NCBI GenBank assembly: GCA_000432255.1
Contig: HF989914.1
Span: 11,270-75,269 of the forward strand
DNA length: 64,000 nt
Reading direction: 5' to 3'
DNA from: Acholeplasma sp. CAG:878
GTDB lineage: Bacteria; Bacillota_I; Bacilli_A; RF39; UBA660
Positions 1,417 through 61,200 of this stretch are shown in pieces; positions within the stretch are counted from its first letter, which is position 1, and each line of letters begins with the position of its first letter. A model generated the notes under the pieces. It saw nothing but the letters and a program-made list of their open reading frames with translations, was not told where the DNA came from and did not search any database. Position numbers and translations under genes: made by a program.

Positions 1417-2613
1417 TTAAGATTTTACAACATAAGGGTCTGAGCTTGTTCCACTTCCAGTAACTAATGTATCAGCACTTAGGTTAATAACAGGTCGAAC
1501 GCCATAATTACTGGCGACATGAAAGTCGCCAGTACGACCAGCGCTAACAACACCCCAAGCACGTGCATAATCATTATAAGTATAGAAGCCGGCGGGGCTC
1601 ATCATACAATATGCACTTCCATTTTTTAGATAAAAGTTTGAACTACTTCCTATTACTCCACCTGCAAATAGTACTTCATCTATTGTTATCAAACCTACTT
1701 TTCCACTTACGACACCTTTTCCGTTTCCATCTGTTGTACAATCAAATGATGGTGTGTAATTATCTTTTGTTGCTACTGTAGCACTTCCTGCAGTATAGTT
1801 TGTATTATATACTACTTTTGCTTGTTCACAAAAATAATTTCCATTTACCACTTTTTCATCAAAACCTTTGTCACTTATATTTGTTTTATACCAGTTTTCT
1901 ACTGCTGTTTTGATTTCTGAGTTTGTATAATACATTTTATCATATGTATTGTATGCACTATTAAATTTTTGACTTGAGATAACATTATCTTGTGTTATTA
2001 ATCTCATTGTTCCATCTTCATTGATTCTTACTATTCTCCATACTTTGTCAGCAAACTTTACATAATTATTTTCTACTGCTCCTTTAAAATAATATGTCGT
2101 TCCAGTGCTAGTGGTTTTTGAATATAATCCATCTCCACTTGTAACAACATTGGAATCATTAGTTCCTAACAACTTTTCTTTGAGTATTGGTTCTGATGAT
2201 ACATCATTTTCTTTAGTACAAGTAACATTACTATTAATAGTTCCATCACTATTTACATTCGTACATACATAATCTTTCATTGAAGCAAACTTTACTCCTT
2301 CAATCTTAATTCCTTTTTCAACGCTATCTTTTGAATTATAGATTGTCCATGTTCCTGCTATTGGTTTTTCTCCTGCTACTGTTAATTCATTTACATCTCC
2401 AGTAGTTATTTTATTTAAGTTTAGTAATCCTTCGGCATATTTTGTTCTTACCGCATCGATTACTCCATAGCAACTTTTTTCTATTGACTTAATTTTGGCA
2501 TTTTCGATGACATTAAATATTATTGGAGTTGTTATTAAGGCTATTATTGATAATACTACAATTACTGCCAATAATTCAATTAATGTAAATCCTTTTTTCT
2601 TTTTATTCTTCAT
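1417..2613 (-). CDS. Prepilin-type (class III signal peptide) protein with a large C-terminal domain; paralog of 49105..50902
   Basis: The N-terminus MKNKKKKG|FTLIELLAVIVVLSIIALI carries a prepilin cleavage/methylation motif with Glu at +5, followed by about 370 aa. The C-terminal roughly 200 aa (YYFKG...MSPAGF...GVRPVINLSADTLVTGSGTSSDPYVV) are closely similar to the C-terminus of ORF 49105..50532. Confidence 0.8.
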   Translation of the reverse strand: MKNKKKKGFTLIELLAVIVVLSIIALITTPIIFNVIENAKIKSIEKSCYGVIDAVRTKYAEGLLNLNKITTGDVNELTVAGEKPIAGTWTIYNSKDSVEKGIKIEGVKFASMKDYVCTNVNSDGTINSNVTCTKENDVSSEPILKEKLLGTNDSNVVTSGDGLYSKTTSTGTTYYFKGAVENNYVKFADKVWRIVRINEDGTMRLITQDNVISSQKFNSAYNTYDKMYYTNSEIKTAVENWYKTNISDKGFDEKVVNGNYFCEQAKVVYNTNYTAGSATVATKDNYTPSFDCTTDGNGKGVVSGKVGLITIDEVLFAGGVIGSSSNFYLKNGSAYCMMSPAGFYTYNDYARAWGVVSAGRTGDFHVASNYGVRPVINLSADTLVTGSGTSSDPYVVKS

Positions 2614-2744
2614 ATACTACTATTCCTTTCCTTATTTTTTAATATTATTTAATTTACTACTATTACTACTTTTTATGCACCGCCACCTTTTTTTATAAGT
2701 ATATTGTTAACTATAAAATACCATTTGATTATTTTCACAACACA

Positions 2745-3656: not shown

Positions 3657-4421
3657 TCATTCCTCCAATAATTTTTTATTTAACAAACAATCTACTCCAT
3701 CAATTTTAATTTTATTCTCAAGAATTCCAATTATTACTTTTTCATATTCTTTTTCATTAATAATAACTTTATCTGCTTTAAAACATTTTATTAACCCTCT
3801 ACTAACACCAGTATAAGGTATAAAGTAATAATTAGCATCAATATTTATATCAATTAATAAAACTGCTTTTTTAGTAATTGGATCAACTAAATTATTGCCA
3901 GTATCTAAAAATCCTTTGCATTTTATTTCCTTTTTAGAAACATAAATAGTTACATCATAATAGTTATTATAATTGTGTTTTAACCAAATTCCTTGTTTTA
4001 TATACAAATATAATATTATCGGTGAGGATATAATTAAAAATACAAAATTAACCGATAACCCATTATTAATAAAAATCAATCCTTTTTGTTTATACGAAAA
4101 TGTTACATTTAAAAAGTACAAAAATCCTCCTAAAATCATACTTGTTGAATATAAATATAGTATATTTTTAAATGTATATTTCAAATCATAATATCCAAAA
4201 GTAATCAATACCATTAAAATACTTATAAATATTTTAAATATAAATAAAGTAAAAGTTGTAAATTCAAAAAACAAAAATAACATACTTAATCCACCTATAA
4301 AAGCTCCAAATATTATTCTTTTTATACTAGCATTTCTTTTTAAAACAATAGAAACAGTTAATAATAAAATAAAATCAAAGAAAAAATTCAAAAGCATAAT
4401 TATATCTATATATATTTTCAT
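3657..4421 (-). CDS. spoIIGA: Pro-sigma-E processing aspartic protease SpoIIGA
   Basis: MKIYIDIIMLLNFFFDFILLLTVSIVLKR aligns with the B. subtilis SpoIIGA N-terminus MKIYLDVIWLLNFCFDALLLLLTAFILKR. The protein is a multi-TM protein with the C-terminal FLDTGNNLVDP aspartyl-protease motif. The ORF-track start at 4478 is a TTG; the ATG at 4421 matches the homolog. Confidence 0.8.
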   Translation of the reverse strand: MKIYIDIIMLLNFFFDFILLLTVSIVLKRNASIKRIIFGAFIGGLSMLFLFFEFTTFTLFIFKIFISILMVLITFGYYDLKYTFKNILYLYSTSMILGGFLYFLNVTFSYKQKGLIFINNGLSVNFVFLIISSPIILYLYIKQGIWLKHNYNNYYDVTIYVSKKEIKCKGFLDTGNNLVDPITKKAVLLIDINIDANYYFIPYTGVSRGLIKCFKADKVIINEKEYEKVIIGILENKIKIDGVDCLLNKKLLEE

Positions 4422-4491: not shown

Positions 4492-5748
4492 TTATTTTAT
4501 TATAAAACTAACACCAATTCTTTCATTTTGGATATTTATTTCATATCCTAACAAAGATAATGTTTTTTTAACAATTGATAGACCTAATCCAAATTGACCT
4601 TTCATACCCTTGGTATAAGGAGAAAATATACTATTAAGGACATCTTCATCAATTTTTGGTCCATCATTATAAAGAGTTATTTTATTGTTTTTTATGGTTA
4701 TTTTAATAACTTTATTTGCGTATCTAACAAAGTTATTTAATAGGTTATCAATTATTGCTTCCCATAGAGAAAATGTACCATTAAATTTTGTATTTCCACT
4801 GTAATTAATAGTAAATTTAACATCTTGTCTTTGAATTTTAAATTTAGTTATTGAACTTTCTATAACGTCTTTTAAATCTACTTTTTCTGTGTGATATTGC
4901 TCAAGGTCTTTAATATAATTTAATTTATTAAGATATAAAAGGGAGTGAACTTTATTCTCTAATTTTTCTACTTGTTCCTTGACTACTTTTCTTGCTTCTT
5001 TTGCATCTAACATATCATCATCTACAGCTTCCATATAAGATTTTATAACAGTTAGGGGTGTTTTAAAATCGTGTGATATATTTTGATACATTTGATTTTT
5101 ATATTCTTCTTGCTCTTTTAGGGAAATTTTAATATTATCAATAGCTTTAGACAAAACAGATAATTCATCATCAACATAATCAATATCTTCTGATTCGTAT
5201 TCAAAATTATCTAAGTTATCGATTTTTTTCTTGAGTATATTTATTTTTATAACAAGTCTTCTAGCCCATAAAACGACTATTGAAACTGCTATAAACAAAG
5301 TTATTATTAAAGTTGGGATTAGTGTATTAATAATATCTCTTCTAATATTTAAGACATATACATTATTTGTAAGAGTTACTCTCATTTGAGTATTTTTTAA
5401 TGAACTACAATAGTAATAGGTTTTACCTAAATTATTGAATTTACCACAGCCGTCATTTATATTCTCTAAAATCTGTTCAGGTTCTAAATCTATGATTTCA
5501 CTTAAGTTATTTGATACTAATAGTTGGGAGTTTTTGGTAACATATAAATAAGCGATATCATCTAATCCATTAGTCATAGTATCATCATCGATAAATTTTA
5601 ATGGTTGACTTAGGTATTGATAAATATTTCTCTCGTATATTGGAAGCATCAATCTTGGGAGGAGTAATCCAAGACCAATAAAGATTATTCCACATATTAT
5701 AATTGCAATAGCTACTAGTTGACGATATAAGGTTGTTTTTATTTTCAT
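4492..5748 (-). CDS. Sensor histidine kinase (two TM helices, extracytoplasmic loop, HisKA H-box HDFKTPLT, HATPase_c)
   Basis: H-box ISHDFKTPLTVIKSYMEA; C-terminal ATP-binding G-boxes (GLGLSIVKK); N-terminal TM helices flank a roughly 130-aa loop. Confidence 0.85.
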   Translation of the reverse strand: MKIKTTLYRQLVAIAIIICGIIFIGLGLLLPRLMLPIYERNIYQYLSQPLKFIDDDTMTNGLDDIAYLYVTKNSQLLVSNNLSEIIDLEPEQILENINDGCGKFNNLGKTYYYCSSLKNTQMRVTLTNNVYVLNIRRDIINTLIPTLIITLFIAVSIVVLWARRLVIKINILKKKIDNLDNFEYESEDIDYVDDELSVLSKAIDNIKISLKEQEEYKNQMYQNISHDFKTPLTVIKSYMEAVDDDMLDAKEARKVVKEQVEKLENKVHSLLYLNKLNYIKDLEQYHTEKVDLKDVIESSITKFKIQRQDVKFTINYSGNTKFNGTFSLWEAIIDNLLNNFVRYANKVIKITIKNNKITLYNDGPKIDEDVLNSIFSPYTKGMKGQFGLGLSIVKKTLSLLGYEINIQNERIGVSFIIK

Positions 5749-6401
5749 GTTAATCTATATCCATATCCATAGATTGTATTAACATTTAAGTTGGGCATTT
5801 TTTTTCTTAATCGTCTTACTAAATCATCTACTACTCTATCACTACCGAAATAATCACTTCCCCAAACTCGAGTTAATATTTCATCTCTACTGAATGATTT
5901 ACCTAAATTATTTACGAATAAAACTAATAAATCAAATTCTAAGGTTGTTAAGTTAATTTCCTTATTATTTTCTTTTACACTTCGCTTATCAAGATTAATT
6001 TCATATGATTCATAAACTGTACTATTGGAGTTATTATACACTCTTTTAAAAATATTATTTATTCTTAAAACGAGTTCTTTAGGTGAATATGGTTTAGTAA
6101 TATAATCATCACTTCCTAATTCTAAACCTATTATTTTATCTAAATCTTGATCACGAGCTGATGTAAAAATAACTGGAACATTTTGATTATATTCTCTTAT
6201 TTTTCTTATTAAATCGTAACCACTTATACTATCACCTAACATAATATCTAAAATCCATAAATCAACTTTTTCTTGACCTATAAAGTTATAAGCATCTATT
6301 CCGCTATAAAATGAAACTACTTCATAACCTGCTTTTTCAATATATGTTTTTAATAAATTATTTAAGTCTTTTTCATCCTCGACTAAACAAATCTTATACA
6401 T
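5745..6401 (-). CDS. OmpR/PhoB-family response regulator
   Basis: Receiver domain (ICLVEDEKDL...DLWILDIMLG...), C-terminal winged-helix (LTTLEFDLLVLFVNNLGKSFSRDEIL...GYGYRL). The likely start is ATG 6401 (MYKICLVEDE) with an AGGTGA SD; the ORF-track start at 6410 is a GTG inside that SD. Confidence 0.85.
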   Translation of the reverse strand: MYKICLVEDEKDLNNLLKTYIEKAGYEVVSFYSGIDAYNFIGQEKVDLWILDIMLGDSISGYDLIRKIREYNQNVPVIFTSARDQDLDKIIGLELGSDDYITKPYSPKELVLRINNIFKRVYNNSNSTVYESYEINLDKRSVKENNKEINLTTLEFDLLVLFVNNLGKSFSRDEILTRVWGSDYFGSDRVVDDLVRRLRKKMPNLNVNTIYGYGYRLT

Positions 6402-6406
6402 ATTTA

Positions 6407-6469
6407 TCACCTATCTAAAGTATAGCACTTTTTTATCTCATTTACCACCTCCATTTTAAATTTTATCAT
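6407..6469 (-). CDS. Short upstream ORF (20 aa, MIKFKMEVVNEIKKCYTLDR) with a perfect SD; its stop overlaps the response-regulator SD
   Basis: AAGGAGGTGatagaATG...; the TGA stop is part of the AGGTGA SD of the response-regulator gene. Confidence 0.25.
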   Translation of the reverse strand: MIKFKMEVVNEIKKCYTLDR

Positions 6470-6684
6470 TCTATCACCTCCTTGTAGTTTAAGTATACAA
6501 GATAAATGTGTAATTTTTTTGATAAAACAATGGGAAATTGTGGTAATGAATATAAAATAGTATTTTTTTAATATGATTTTTTATAGATTATCTAAGTAAT
6601 AATTGATTATTAACCCCACATTTTCTTTGGTAACTTTTAAATATAAAATGTGTATAATTGAATTAGAAAAAAATTTATAAAAAA

Positions 6685-6777
6685 ATGATGGGTACCCCAG
6701 GCGAGATGAATGCTCACATACAAAGTATGCTTACTGGCATTGCCAACACATCGTTATTCCTTCACAAGTATCCCATC
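6685..6777 (-). ncRNA. Candidate small structured RNA (about 95 nt), GC-rich, with its own extended -10 promoter and a closing stem plus U-run
   Basis: The minus strand carries tgcTATAATatatttgtaGATGGGATAC...(GC-rich about 75 nt)...GTACCCATCatttttttat. The closing helix is GATGGG(A)TAC/GTACCCATC. The region is GC-rich in an AT-rich genome. The promoter overlaps the stop codon of ORF 6804..7754. The family is unidentified. Confidence 0.3.
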
Positions 6778-6803
6778 TACAAATATATTATAGCATATAA
6801 TTG

Positions 6804-7754
6804 TTAATTATTCACAACTTTTTTATTTTTGAATTCTTCGATGTAAACTTGACTAATATATTCAATTGTTATATCACTATATTTATAAATTTTGGTTTTA
6901 GAATAAGGAAACTGATAACAATAATCTTGATTATTTTTTAATCCCTTTCTTTTACATATATCTTGAAATTTATTTGATGTAAATTTATGATTTGGACCTA
7001 GCGATAGCTCCAATGTTTCTTTTATCTTTTTAATTACTTCTGTAGCAGTATAAGGATGAGTTTTATCGATATCTTTTGGAACATTAATTATTGTAGCTTT
7101 TTCTCCACCATCTCTAACAACTGTGTATTTAATATCAGCTTCTTGCTCTTTTTTAGTAGATACTAATCTTAATGTTTGAGTTAAATTCTCATCTGAATCT
7201 AGTTCTTTTTTTATTTTTTTAAGCATTAACAAATTACTAGGATTTAATATTAAAGAAGAAACATCTTTATCATCTCCAGGATTAACTAACGCAATATATG
7301 GTGTTACCTTTTCATTTAAATTATATTCTGGAAATTGTTTTTTGAAAAACTTATTATAGTTTGTTAAACATCTTTGAAAAGCAGGGGATAATATAAAATC
7401 ATATTCTGGTAATATTAGATGTGTTGCTTTATTTCTAATATTTCTAACAAAAGAAATATTGTTCTTTGTTTTATCTGTTGTACTTGTAAAAACTTTCTCT
7501 ACACATTCATCTAGTCCAATTGTTCTATTAGTATCATCTTTATAATTTATTACATTGATATCTTTTGCTTTATTAATAAGATATGCTTTTAATAATAATT
7601 CCCAAGCATTACAGATAAAAAAACAAAATCCTTCAGTTCTATAATTAATAGTGGGTTTATTTATTATCTCAATTGACATTAAATATGCTTCTTCTGATTT
7701 ATTTAGTAGTGCATTAATATATTTATTTAATTCTTCTGTTTTGATAACTATCAT
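6804..7754 (-). CDS. Hypothetical protein, possibly DUF3644-like (N-terminal ...IINKPTINYRTEGFCFFICNAWELLLKAYLI... motif)
   Basis: 316-aa ORF with no housekeeping homolog recognised. The N-terminal motif resembles, as far as I can recall, the DUF3644 family often found in defence/RM neighbourhoods. It is a monocistronic gene next to tRNA-Leu. Confidence 0.6.
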   Translation of the reverse strand: MIVIKTEELNKYINALLNKSEEAYLMSIEIINKPTINYRTEGFCFFICNAWELLLKAYLINKAKDINVINYKDDTNRTIGLDECVEKVFTSTTDKTKNNISFVRNIRNKATHLILPEYDFILSPAFQRCLTNYNKFFKKQFPEYNLNEKVTPYIALVNPGDDKDVSSLILNPSNLLMLKKIKKELDSDENLTQTLRLVSTKKEQEADIKYTVVRDGGEKATIINVPKDIDKTHPYTATEVIKKIKETLELSLGPNHKFTSNKFQDICKRKGLKNNQDYCYQFPYSKTKIYKYSDITIEYISQVYIEEFKNKKVVNN

Positions 7755-8008: not shown

Positions 8009-8093
8009 TGGTGCGTGAAAAGAGACTTGAACTCTCACGATTATTAATCACAGACACCTCAAGCCTGCGTGTCTACCATTCCACCATTCACGC
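8009..8093 (-). tRNA. tRNA-Leu (anticodon GAG), class II with long variable arm, CCA encoded
   Basis: Minus strand: GCGTGAA-TG-GTGG-AATGGTAGA-CACG-C-AGGCT(T)TGAGG... The acceptor stem GCGTGAA/TTCACGC is perfect. The anticodon stem CAGGC/GTCTG encloses loop TTGAGGT (anticodon GAG). It has a long variable arm, T-arm GAGAG-TTCAAGT-CTCTT, discriminator A and CCA. Confidence 0.85.
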
Positions 8094-61104: not shown

Positions 61105-61200
61105 CTCCTTTAATCTCAGACTCGCCATTAAGGTACATTAAATGTTTATAACCTTTTTTGTGCGGTTGTAGAGAGGTCTCTACACAGTAATTAATTTTAA
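61105..61200 (-). promoter_or_regulatory. Candidate L21-operon leader RNA structure (ribosomal-protein leader)
   Basis: A GC-rich structured segment upstream of rplU on the minus strand: TGTGTAGAGACCTCTCTACAACCGCACA (nested stems), then GGCGAGTCTGAGATTAAAGGAGG leading to the ATG. This is the position where Firmicutes carry the L21 leader. Confidence 0.3.

Follow-up and report, generated by a model that had tools for sequence, protein, structure and literature searches.

On the minus strand of a 64,000-nucleotide stretch of Acholeplasma sp. CAG:878 (contig HF989914.1, positions 11,270 to 75,269; this whole stretch is called the window below, with positions counted from its first letter), a candidate small-RNA gene lies directly past the end of the open reading frame (ORF) 6804-7754, which encodes a 316-amino-acid protein with a HEPN domain. 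We consider it very probable that this is a genuine structured RNA gene that is co-inherited with the HEPN gene. The RNA is genuine, widespread and absent from the catalogued families, and we class it as a new RNA family, within a HEPN protein-RNA module whose gene architecture is also new. What it does is judged by analogy, and the reading we favor, with a probability of roughly one half, is that it would be a type III-like antitoxin or regulator of the HEPN nuclease. A preliminary description, made from the letters of the window, had nominated the element as an independently transcribed RNA of about 95 nucleotides (nt) and had proposed a scan of known structured-RNA families and a search for compensatory base changes in relatives. 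The features of the element and its partner gene are as follows.

6804-7754, minus strand: partner protein gene, 316 amino acids, HEPN (DUF3644/EC042_2821) plus a C-terminal EC042_2821 REase-like domain, from Pfam and PADLOC
6679-6795, minus strand: small-RNA gene from promoter to U-run, from the sequence and the covariance model
about 6809-6814, minus strand: weak -35-like TGAATA, within the last codons of ORF 6804-7754
6787-6795, minus strand: extended -10 TGcTATAAT of the RNA gene, read from the sequence
6687-6777, minus strand: RNA body of about 91 nt, made up of the closing helix P1, two further helices with conserved internal loops between them, and hairpins P2 and P3 on a three-way junction, from the covariance model and RNAalifold
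6766-6777, minus strand: 5' strand of P1, GAUGGG(A)UACUU, pairing with 6687-6697; 7 of the 11 P1 pairs change on both sides
6687-6697, minus strand: 3' strand of P1, GGGUACCCAUC, pairing with 6766-6777, from the family alignment
6747-6761, minus strand: 5' side of the inner stem, with compensatory changes
6699-6708, minus strand: 3' side of the inner stem, CAUCUCGCCU, from RNAalifold and the family alignment
6761-6759 (AGG) with 6701-6699 (CCU), minus strand: AGG:CCU helix, with changes of A-U to G-C or U-A
6753-6747 (CGA-U-GUG) with 6708-6702 (CAU-C-UCG), minus strand: second inner helix, with a U.C mismatch and compensatory changes
6765-6762 and 6758-6754, minus strand: conserved unpaired blocks GUGA and AAUAA, from the family alignment
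6734-6746, minus strand: P2 hairpin UUGGC-AAU-GCCAG, in which 4 of the 5 pairs covary
6716-6730, minus strand: P3 hairpin GCAUAC-UUU-GUAUGU, variable in sequence and length in the family, in which 5 of the 6 pairs covary
6679-6685, minus strand: U7 run immediately 3' of P1, presumed to signal intrinsic termination

Structure and ends of the RNA

Taken from the window sequence alone the structure is unremarkable and does not rise above chance, as the single-sequence fold has a minimum free energy of -26.7 kcal/mol with z = -0.95 against shuffles. It is the comparative evidence, from a covariance model and from covariation, that places the structure beyond chance. RNAalifold applied to a plain MAFFT alignment of 24 sequences yields the inner part of P1, the AGG:CCU helix, the CGA-U-GUG:CAU-C-UCG helix with its U.C mismatch, P2 in the form GGC-NNN-GCC, and a variable P3. 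With P1 extended to about 12 bp before the pairs were counted, 95.5% of the cells of this alignment are paired compared with 85.4% in shuffles, the observed value being reached by none of 500 shuffles, and double-sided changes are found in 16 pairs against 8.6 in shuffles; when the partners are slid out of register, 32-47% of cells are paired. The covariance model built from this alignment, named R1, finds exactly one copy in the window, at 6688-6777 on the minus strand, with 98.4 bits and E = 1e-29. The 64 kb hold no second copy of the element and no tandem or internal repeat of it, and the identical element is present in ten metagenome contigs of the same species, which is a common human-gut organism. 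In a family-wide alignment of 73 matches, which is fitted to R1 and hence biased towards the model, the 61 distinct sequences have 96.0% of cells paired versus 72.7% in shuffles and a covariation score of 0.567 versus 0.181, with 31-51% paired for slid partners, and the compensatory changes for which the preliminary description had suggested looking are there at 21 of 31 pairs. The alignment made by MAFFT only agrees with this one in trend.

Covariation is seen in every helix of the RNA. In P1, the window strands GAUGGGAUAC/GUACCCAUC are replaced by GGUGGUUAAC/GUUAACCACC at locus L252, by GACAAUUAAC/GUUGAUUGUC at L248, and in a further variant by AAGAUAAC/GUUAUCUU (loci other than the window are given throughout by such L numbers). 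P2 goes from GGC/GCC to GGU/ACC in L100 and to CCC/GGG in phage copies, and in the CGAUGUG:CAUCUCG helix C-G goes to A-U, G-C to A-U/UA, A-U to C-G, and U-A to G-C. Conserved G-U pairs, in alignment columns 11, 12, 29, 32 and 51, occur only on the strand that runs from promoter to U-run, which marks it as the folding strand. Four blocks that remain unpaired are near-invariant, namely GUGA, A-UAA, UAAG and GAGnAUU, with UAAG and GAGnAUU making up the junction strands; blocks of this kind are typically sites of protein contact or tertiary interaction. We regard the predicted three-way-junction structure as strongly supported, and the overall depiction of the RNA as a long irregular stem (P1, AGG:CCU and CGAUGUG:CAUCUCG) ending in a three-way junction that bears two hairpins as well supported.

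The pattern of substitution, compensatory and not codon-like, bears on whether the region might instead be a small protein gene on the plus strand or a decayed coding fragment. A 40-amino-acid ORF is indeed listed at 6685-6807, with a promoter-like site TGTGTATAAT at 6648-6657, but its frame is broken by stops or frameshifts in most close relatives, and it has neither a ribosome-binding site (RBS) nor a Pfam match, and we give this idea practically no credence.

Turning to the ends, the TGcTATAAT on the minus strand, the terminal helix, the hairpin that forms P3 and the U7 run all stand where the preliminary description placed them. The closing helix, of 10-12 bp, pairs GAUGGGAUAC (6777-6768) with GUACCCAUC (6695-6687) around one bulged A and encloses about 70 nt, and 9 nt separate GAUGGGAUAC from the TGcTATAAT (6795-6787). 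The preliminary description had the -10 overlapping the stop codon at 6804-6806 of the upstream ORF; it is actually positioned 9 nt past that codon, and only the -35 region falls within the last codons. The same text rightly saw a GC-rich noncoding segment, but put it at about 50% and as the GC-richest in the window, and it is nearer 46% (45.6% over the 90 nt 6686-6775, against 26.2% for the whole window), a value that tRNA-Leu at 8009-8093 equals.

Among the relatives, a near-consensus -10 is found 4-9 nt ahead of the model start in most gene-linked copies. In most copies of the window's clade it has the TG-extended form TGnTATAAT at 8-9 nt, and many convergent and phage copies have instead a TTGACA-like -35 at a spacing of N17 from a TATAAT, for instance TTGACA-N17-TATAAT in L251 and L260. 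At least 4 T follow directly after P1 in most copies; the U-run is absent in L100, L227, L231/L243 and L256, where a separate hairpin with a T-run, as read by eye, is located downstream. Promoter and U-run are kept in both orientations relative to the neighboring gene. From these sequences an RNA gene of about 95-100 nt, with its own sigma-70-type promoter, a start few nt before the closing helix and an end at the U-run, is well supported as a prediction. That upholds the nomination of a small RNA, one whose transcription is predicted from sequence. Because the unit keeps its ends and its design in both orientations, the possibility that it is a mere 3' untranslated region (UTR) or a terminator is excluded. 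The preliminary description had left room for its being just the terminator of the upstream gene, which does not survive the finding that the unit is kept when the orientation flips to convergent. A simple terminator or 3' UTR is likewise out of keeping with a helix enclosing about 70 nt with a three-way junction, with a conserved promoter, and with an orientation that is inverted in most lineages.

The 4227 covariance models of Rfam 15, applied to the whole window at the gathering threshold, recognize only a ribosomal protein L21 leader (61108-61177, minus strand, 54.8 bits) and tRNA-Leu(GAG) (8009-8093, minus strand), and no family is placed on the element; this proposed scan thus agrees with the earlier statement that the element matched no RNA family its author knew. 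At E ≤ 10 the region 6400-7000 gives a chance match to a small nucleolar RNA and no other, and at E ≤ 1 no family overlaps the RNA at 17 other loci that carry it. The abiF motif (RF03085) is unmatched in all scanned loci, including L271, where the RNA is linked to an Abi_2 gene. Signal recognition particle RNA, 6S RNA, tRNA-like RNAs, ribozymes, abiF, Lacto-int and others were rejected as identities on the grounds that none matched in the Rfam scans. A duplicated 3' end of tRNA-Leu, as would make up an att site, was rejected as well, as the element is not similar to 8009-8093 and occurs only once in the window. A scan of viral sequences with the bare 14-mer TAACGATGTGTTGG returned 120 chance matches and no true copies.

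Linkage to the nuclease gene

The gene in front of the RNA had been called an orphan. ORF 6804-7754 does have recognizable domains, scoring E = 5.6e-42 against Pfam DUF3644 (PF12358) and E = 5.3e-12 against EC042_2821 (PF18740), and the protein matches the PADLOC candidate defense family PDC-S19 at 1.4e-68 and also PHROG 9605, a family listed with no function. DUF3644 has been described as the HEPN "EC042_2821 family" fused to a novel REase domain (Anantharaman et al. 2013, PMC3710099). In an alignment of 19 sequences reaching 26% identity, the Rx4H motif of the HEPN domain, R107-N-K-A-T-H112 (RNxxTH), is invariant; a canonical D...(D/E)xK motif is not evident in the C-terminal domain, in which only A206, K227 and D228 are conserved. 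Sequence search finds no relative of the protein with a solved structure, and Foldseek on the AlphaFold2 model (predicted local distance difference test score 77) finds only weak HEPN matches with E > 0.1, none of which supports an REase-like fold.

Single-gene DUF3644 defense proteins (PADLOC PDC-S19, HEC-08 and Ishtar) share the N-terminal HEPN family with this protein. HEC-08 is a DUF3644 HEPN protein of demonstrated defense activity that needs the histidine of its Rx4-6H motif (bioRxiv 10.1101/2024.01.29.577857), and the "Ishtar" HEPN/DUF3644 proteins block plasmids. Ishtar joins its HEPN N-terminus to an uncharacterized alpha/beta C-terminal domain, and HEC-08 has C-terminal zinc-finger domains in place of the REase-like domain. 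The descriptions of HEC-08, PDC-S19 and Ishtar mention no RNA component, the Ishtar preprint having been searched by term, and full-text literature searches on DUF3644, EC042_2821, PDC-S19 and HEPN noncoding RNA (ncRNA) antitoxins found no RNA partner described. In a distant lineage, P0290, an XRE/HTH-family gene overlaps the start of the DUF3644 gene (L254 2747-3010), and a similar XRE-family gene overlaps it in Streptococcus satellite Javan334; it may add a protein regulator to the module.

Among homologs selected by the protein, with 27-88% identity, the RNA is found at the 3' end of the nuclease gene in 15 of 15. Those at 80-88% identity are single-gene insertions in three unrelated chromosomal contexts (L098, L100 and L102), one with a tRNA and VanZ/RDD genes, one with a rhomboid protease gene and RNHCP, and one between NUDIX and RNase HII genes; in each the element comes immediately 3' of the stop codon with a TGnTATAAT (nhmmer E 1e-22 to 1e-28). 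Homologs at 43-54% identity, chosen by protein similarity alone, have the element in 5 of 5. Four of these are convergent, with the 3' strand of P1 and the U-run overlapping or abutting the stop codon, and the co-directional one, L256, belongs to a prophage, where it lies with lysis genes on one side and the integrase on the other. At 27-35% identity there are seven homologs in annotated phages and satellites, and all seven have the RNA convergent at the gene's 3' end with covariance-model E from 1e-11 to 1e-19: Streptococcus satellite Javan334, Streptococcus phage Javan263, Listeria phage LP-HM00113468, Flavonifractor phage Chenonceau, Staphylococcus phages StB20-like and FJ04, and Corynebacterium phage Poushou. 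The RNA overlaps or abuts the stop codon in six of them, and a gap of 69 nt separates the two in Poushou. A metagenome scan with an RNA-derived pattern, one that left out the window's own sequence type, added 27 further loci.

Several side observations concern these loci. The RNA is unannotated in the published phage genomes or is overlaid by a hypothetical coding sequence (CDS). StB20-like (L261, NC_028821) has two copies, at 617-706 behind a capA-like gene and at 2450-2536 behind the DUF3644 gene, and the hypothetical CDS gp58 (2478-2645, minus strand) that overlies the second copy is probably spurious. In the convergent loci L248 (2650-2675), L252 (about 3925-3942) and L303, the two genes have bases in common: read on the other strand, the terminator U-run of the RNA codes for the Lys-rich C-terminus (..KKK..) of the protein. 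In Javan263 (L266), a sub-threshold Rfam match to the S. pyogenes small RNA Spy779816, 46 bits against a gathering score of 67, is found at 2334-2422 on the minus strand, between the integrase gene and the RNA, immediately ahead of the latter and in the same direction.

The two genes point the same way in the window's clade and in L256 and converge elsewhere, and this is the evidence on which to weigh a cis-antisense (type I-like) regulator, or a bidirectional terminator, acting at the 3' end of the cargo mRNA, with the structure serving only termination or stability. In most lineages the RNA is convergent with its 3' end overlapping or abutting the neighbor's stop, and P1 with its U-run is terminator-like. 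Yet where the RNA is co-directional it has no complementarity to the mRNA and is equally conserved; a terminator has no need of a three-way junction and four invariant unpaired blocks; and the copies in L100, L227, L231/L243 and L256, which have no U-run, apparently, by eye, have their separate terminator hairpin downstream. We judge this explanation quite improbable.

Known Gram-positive type I toxin-antitoxin (TA) systems with convergent antitoxin RNAs overlapping at the 3' end, such as SprG/SprF and TxpA/RatA, consist of small hydrophobic toxin peptides and antisense RNAs. The likeness lies in the convergent small RNA overlapping the 3' end of its neighbor and in the location on prophages and islands. 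The difference is that the neighbor here is a 316-amino-acid nuclease, and that the co-directional arrangement of the window's clade leaves no complementarity. Assignment to type I TA was rejected: the sole small ORF, on the plus strand at 6685-6807, encodes no hydrophobic peptide and is interrupted by stops in relatives, and the co-directional layout has no antisense overlap. Complementarity of the RNA to the RBS of the nuclease gene, considered by eye, appears confined to the window's clade and falls in a part of the RNA that is base-paired, and the idea was dropped.

It is well supported that the RNA and the HEPN-REase gene form a two-gene module that travels as small mobile or defense cargo in variable islands, prophages and phage satellites. 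In L098, a direct repeat of about 40 nt, AAAACTACTCTCAAATAAAATTGAAAGTAGTTTTATTTT (at about 4800-4840 and about 6170-6210), flanks the cassette of nuclease gene and RNA just downstream of a tRNA gene; it resembles an insertion scar, and suggests that the 1.4-kb two-gene module moves as a unit, having no recombinase of its own. The window's cassette is directly downstream of tRNA-Leu(GAG) at 8009-8093 on the minus strand, a typical insertion point for islands. In the window (6796-6815, minus strand) and in L098, the RNA is preceded by a further motif, TGAATAATTAACAA, with TGnTATAAT 5-6 nt behind it, and a near-identical motif and promoter stand before the nuclease gene itself in L102, so arranged that they may be a common promoter or operator for both genes.

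The position of the element at the 3' boundary of single-gene insertions, together with the repeat in L098, could be taken to mean that it is a recombination or attachment site at the DNA level, folding as single-stranded DNA in the manner of attC, and the base of P1 is often ..TTAAC/GTTAA.., which we take to be vaguely like integron core sites. We hold this to be very improbable. The repeats in L098 lie outside the element, promoter, U-run and conserved G-U pairs belong to one strand only, and the integron integrase is absent from the window and the related loci; attC sites are usually far less conserved internally than this element. An integron attC site as such was rejected on the same features: no IntI in the window or related loci, high internal conservation, and a promoter, U-run and strand-specific G-U pairs.

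A proposed type III-like antitoxin and its alternatives

If the RNA is a type III-like antitoxin or regulator, it would bind the HEPN nuclease and hold it inactive, or would tune its level, in uninfected cells, and the conserved unpaired nucleotides would be elements that contact the protein or occlude its active site. Once the short-lived RNA is lost, for instance when infection shuts off host transcription, the nuclease would be freed and could abort the infection or the establishment of a plasmid. We favor this reading because the dependence between the two genes is one-sided, the nuclease gene always being found with the RNA and the RNA sometimes without the nuclease gene, as is typical of TA pairs, where orphan antitoxins are tolerated and orphan toxins are not; because the same RNA stands beside a second HEPN family, Abi_2; and because there is a direct precedent in the neutralization of AbiF by a structured ncRNA.

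In that precedent, a structured ncRNA of about 100-130 nt, encoded in cis with a SigA promoter and a terminator, binds AbiF, an Abi_2 HEPN toxin, directly and so neutralizes it, and the conserved single-stranded nucleotides of the ncRNA inhibit the HEPN site (PMC12373285; PMC12737573). Its representatives are RCd22 in C. difficile phi027 and AbiFr of PbAbiF, and its family is RF03085. The two systems have in common a HEPN nuclease of a phage or defense locus whose partner is a structured ncRNA of about 100 nt encoded in cis, transcription signals consisting of a sigma-A-type promoter and an intrinsic terminator, carriage on prophages, and conservation of the structure rather than of the stem sequence (PMC12373285; PMC12737573). 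Furthermore, the present RNA adjoins Abi_2 genes in two phage contigs, L271 and L303. They differ in that the partner here is mostly a DUF3644/EC042_2821 HEPN fused to an REase-like domain; that the RNA is at the 3' end of the gene, in tandem or convergent, whereas that of AbiF is in the 5' leader; that it is not co-transcribed as a riboswitch-like attenuator; and that it has a three-way junction of about 91 nt in place of one or two abiF hairpins of about 34 nt, the antitoxin role here being assigned by analogy.

The comparison with classical type III TA systems (ToxIN, AbiQ/antiQ, CptIN and TenpIN) comes out divided. They pair a protein endoribonuclease with an adjacent ncRNA and are abortive-infection-type defenses on mobile elements, and the module here has an adjacent ncRNA with a HEPN protein that is a candidate endoribonuclease; an adjacent, co-inherited ncRNA gene, one trait of type III, accompanies 15 of 15 homologs of at least 27% identity. 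Where the classical systems have an upstream tandem-repeat RNA that is processed by a toxin of the ToxN/AbiQ fold, this one has a HEPN protein and an RNA that is single-copy, unrepeated, and downstream or convergent. The full ToxIN layout of upstream tandem repeats, terminator and processing is thus not what these loci display.

There are several points that weigh against an antitoxin or regulator of this nuclease. A core-pattern scan of IMG/VR gave 39 phage contigs, 27 with a convergent DUF3644 gene and 12 without DUF3644, and these 12 keep an RNA that is apparently intact in promoter, U-run and pairing, as judged by eye. In 10 of the 12 there is no recognizable HEPN gene beside the RNA, and so the RNA can persist, and perhaps function, in the absence of the nuclease protein. 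At two DUF3644 homologs of 22-24% identity, on Mycolicibacterium and Sinorhizobium plasmids, R1 finds no copy, and the RNA there may be absent or too diverged to detect. The layout, being downstream, single-copy and often convergent, is unlike every known type III system, and the RNA structure has no resemblance to the abiF motif, as there is no Rfam match. Finally, where the two genes converge, the RNA could act on the 3' end of the mRNA by antisense, in the manner of type I systems.

The contigs lacking DUF3644 are also the best ground for supposing that the RNA is an autonomous small RNA of mobile elements, residing at an integrase-proximal cargo hot spot with a function unrelated to its neighbor, such as trans regulation or insulation, and that DUF3644 is simply the commonest cargo. 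In most of the 12 an ORF of 350-390 amino acids diverges upstream; one is a confirmed tyrosine integrase and two more are alike by sequence, so that among those examined the upstream divergent gene is of this kind. The cargo is varied. In L271 and L303 the RNA is tail-to-tail with Abi_2/AbiD-F HEPN genes (Pfam 1e-28 and 1e-32) in the place of DUF3644, other convergent cargo consists of CapA-like, SHOCT and DUF1828/1829 (PADLOC PDC-M24B) proteins and small ORFs of no known kind, and L283 has no adjacent ORF. The second copy behind the capA-like gene in StB20-like fits the same picture. On the other side, counting from the protein gives 15 of 15 over 27-88% identity in several host genera of two phyla; the chromosomal carrier sites in the window, L098, L100 and L102 have no integrase; adjacency within few nt is kept through the flip in orientation; and the exceptions all have the one RNA sequence type of Staphylococcus phages, two of them beside another HEPN family. 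We therefore think it unlikely, though it deserves attention, that the RNA is independent of the nuclease.

A different kind of derived copy is seen as a side observation in some gut genomes, in L225 (216-307 and 1525-1615) and also in L232, L240, L245, L246 and L249, where paired, promoter-less copies with P2 destroyed and 1309 nt apart flank an ORF of 306 amino acids with no Pfam match beside a class II aminoacyl-tRNA synthetase gene, with the nuclease gene absent nearby. These are probably decaying remnants.

The same one-sided dependence of protein on RNA, and the very strong conservation of the loops, would equally be expected if the RNA were an obligatory cofactor of the HEPN-REase nuclease, whether scaffold, sensor or activator, as are tracrRNA, omega-RNA and retron ncRNA. 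A guide-like variable single-stranded segment is not found, the variable parts (outer P1 and P3) being base-paired, and we know of no HEPN or REase-fold enzyme of such size that uses such an RNA cofactor. A cofactor role appears rather improbable to us.

An extension of the antitoxin reading is that the RNA is a general neutralizer of HEPN proteins across DUF3644 and Abi_2, in which case the orphan copies that many Staphylococcus-type phages keep beside the integrase, each with a strong promoter of its own, would be anti-defense decoys against HEPN abortive-infection systems of the host, or anti-addiction modules. We offer it as a speculation with the odds well against it. If it were true, one RNA fold would serve as antitoxin in defense cassettes and as counter-defense in phages.

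Surroundings in the window and significance

The gene order on the minus strand is an ABC transporter, tRNA-Leu(GAG) at 8009-8093, ORF 6804-7754, the element, a 20-amino-acid ORF, an OmpR-type response regulator, a histidine kinase, spoIIGA and sigE. The location ahead of the regulator raised the option of a riboswitch or leader of the response regulator and kinase, which was rejected. In 80 GTDB loci with orthologs of the regulator and kinase (kinase 51-65% identical; metagenome-assembled genomes named "Bacilli bacterium", Candidatus Faecisoma, Coprosoma and others), nhmmer and the covariance model find no copy of the element in 939 kb. In the closest relative, whose kinase is 86% identical, the genes upstream of the regulator are instead those of a methylase, a MutH-like protein and a UvrD-like helicase, and nucleotide homology with the window ends at about 6595, short of the element. 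Since the orthologous loci are without the element, a variable island occupies the place ahead of the regulator, with the element in its variable part.

Two other features of this interval were noted in passing. The 20-amino-acid ORF, MIKFKMEVVNEIKKCYTLDR, at 6407-6469 on the minus strand, has a strong AGGAGG RBS and ends 5 nt ahead of the regulator's ATG at 6401; in related species (L091, L093 and L096) its region is conserved, as is the C-terminal part of the peptide, ..MVNEIKK[C/W]YTL[D/N]R, and it may be a leader peptide or a translational coupling device for the operon of regulator and kinase. The sequence TTACCACAATTTCCCATTGTTTTATCAAAAAAATTACACATTT, at about 6520-6595 on the minus strand, has TTAC(C)ACA-type repeats, is conserved down to relatives with about 65% kinase identity, and marks where homology with the relatives begins. 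It may be a putative autoregulatory binding site.

As for what the RNA gene means, DUF3644/EC042_2821 HEPN-REase genes are now treated as single-gene candidates, and if the RNA is obligatory to them they become two-component protein-RNA systems, in which case the ORF cloned alone could be toxic or give misleading negatives. A covariance model would mend annotations in Listeria, Staphylococcus, Streptococcus, Flavonifractor and Corynebacterium phages as well as in abundant human-gut Bacilli, and the family, in which every helix covaries across 61 distinct sequences, is defined well enough to be a clear target for work on structure and mechanism. If the antitoxin reading is true, the recently established principle of AbiF and its ncRNA, in which a structured RNA holds a HEPN toxin and which has been proposed as the root from which Cas13 arose, would apply to a second large HEPN family as well, with another RNA fold and another layout.

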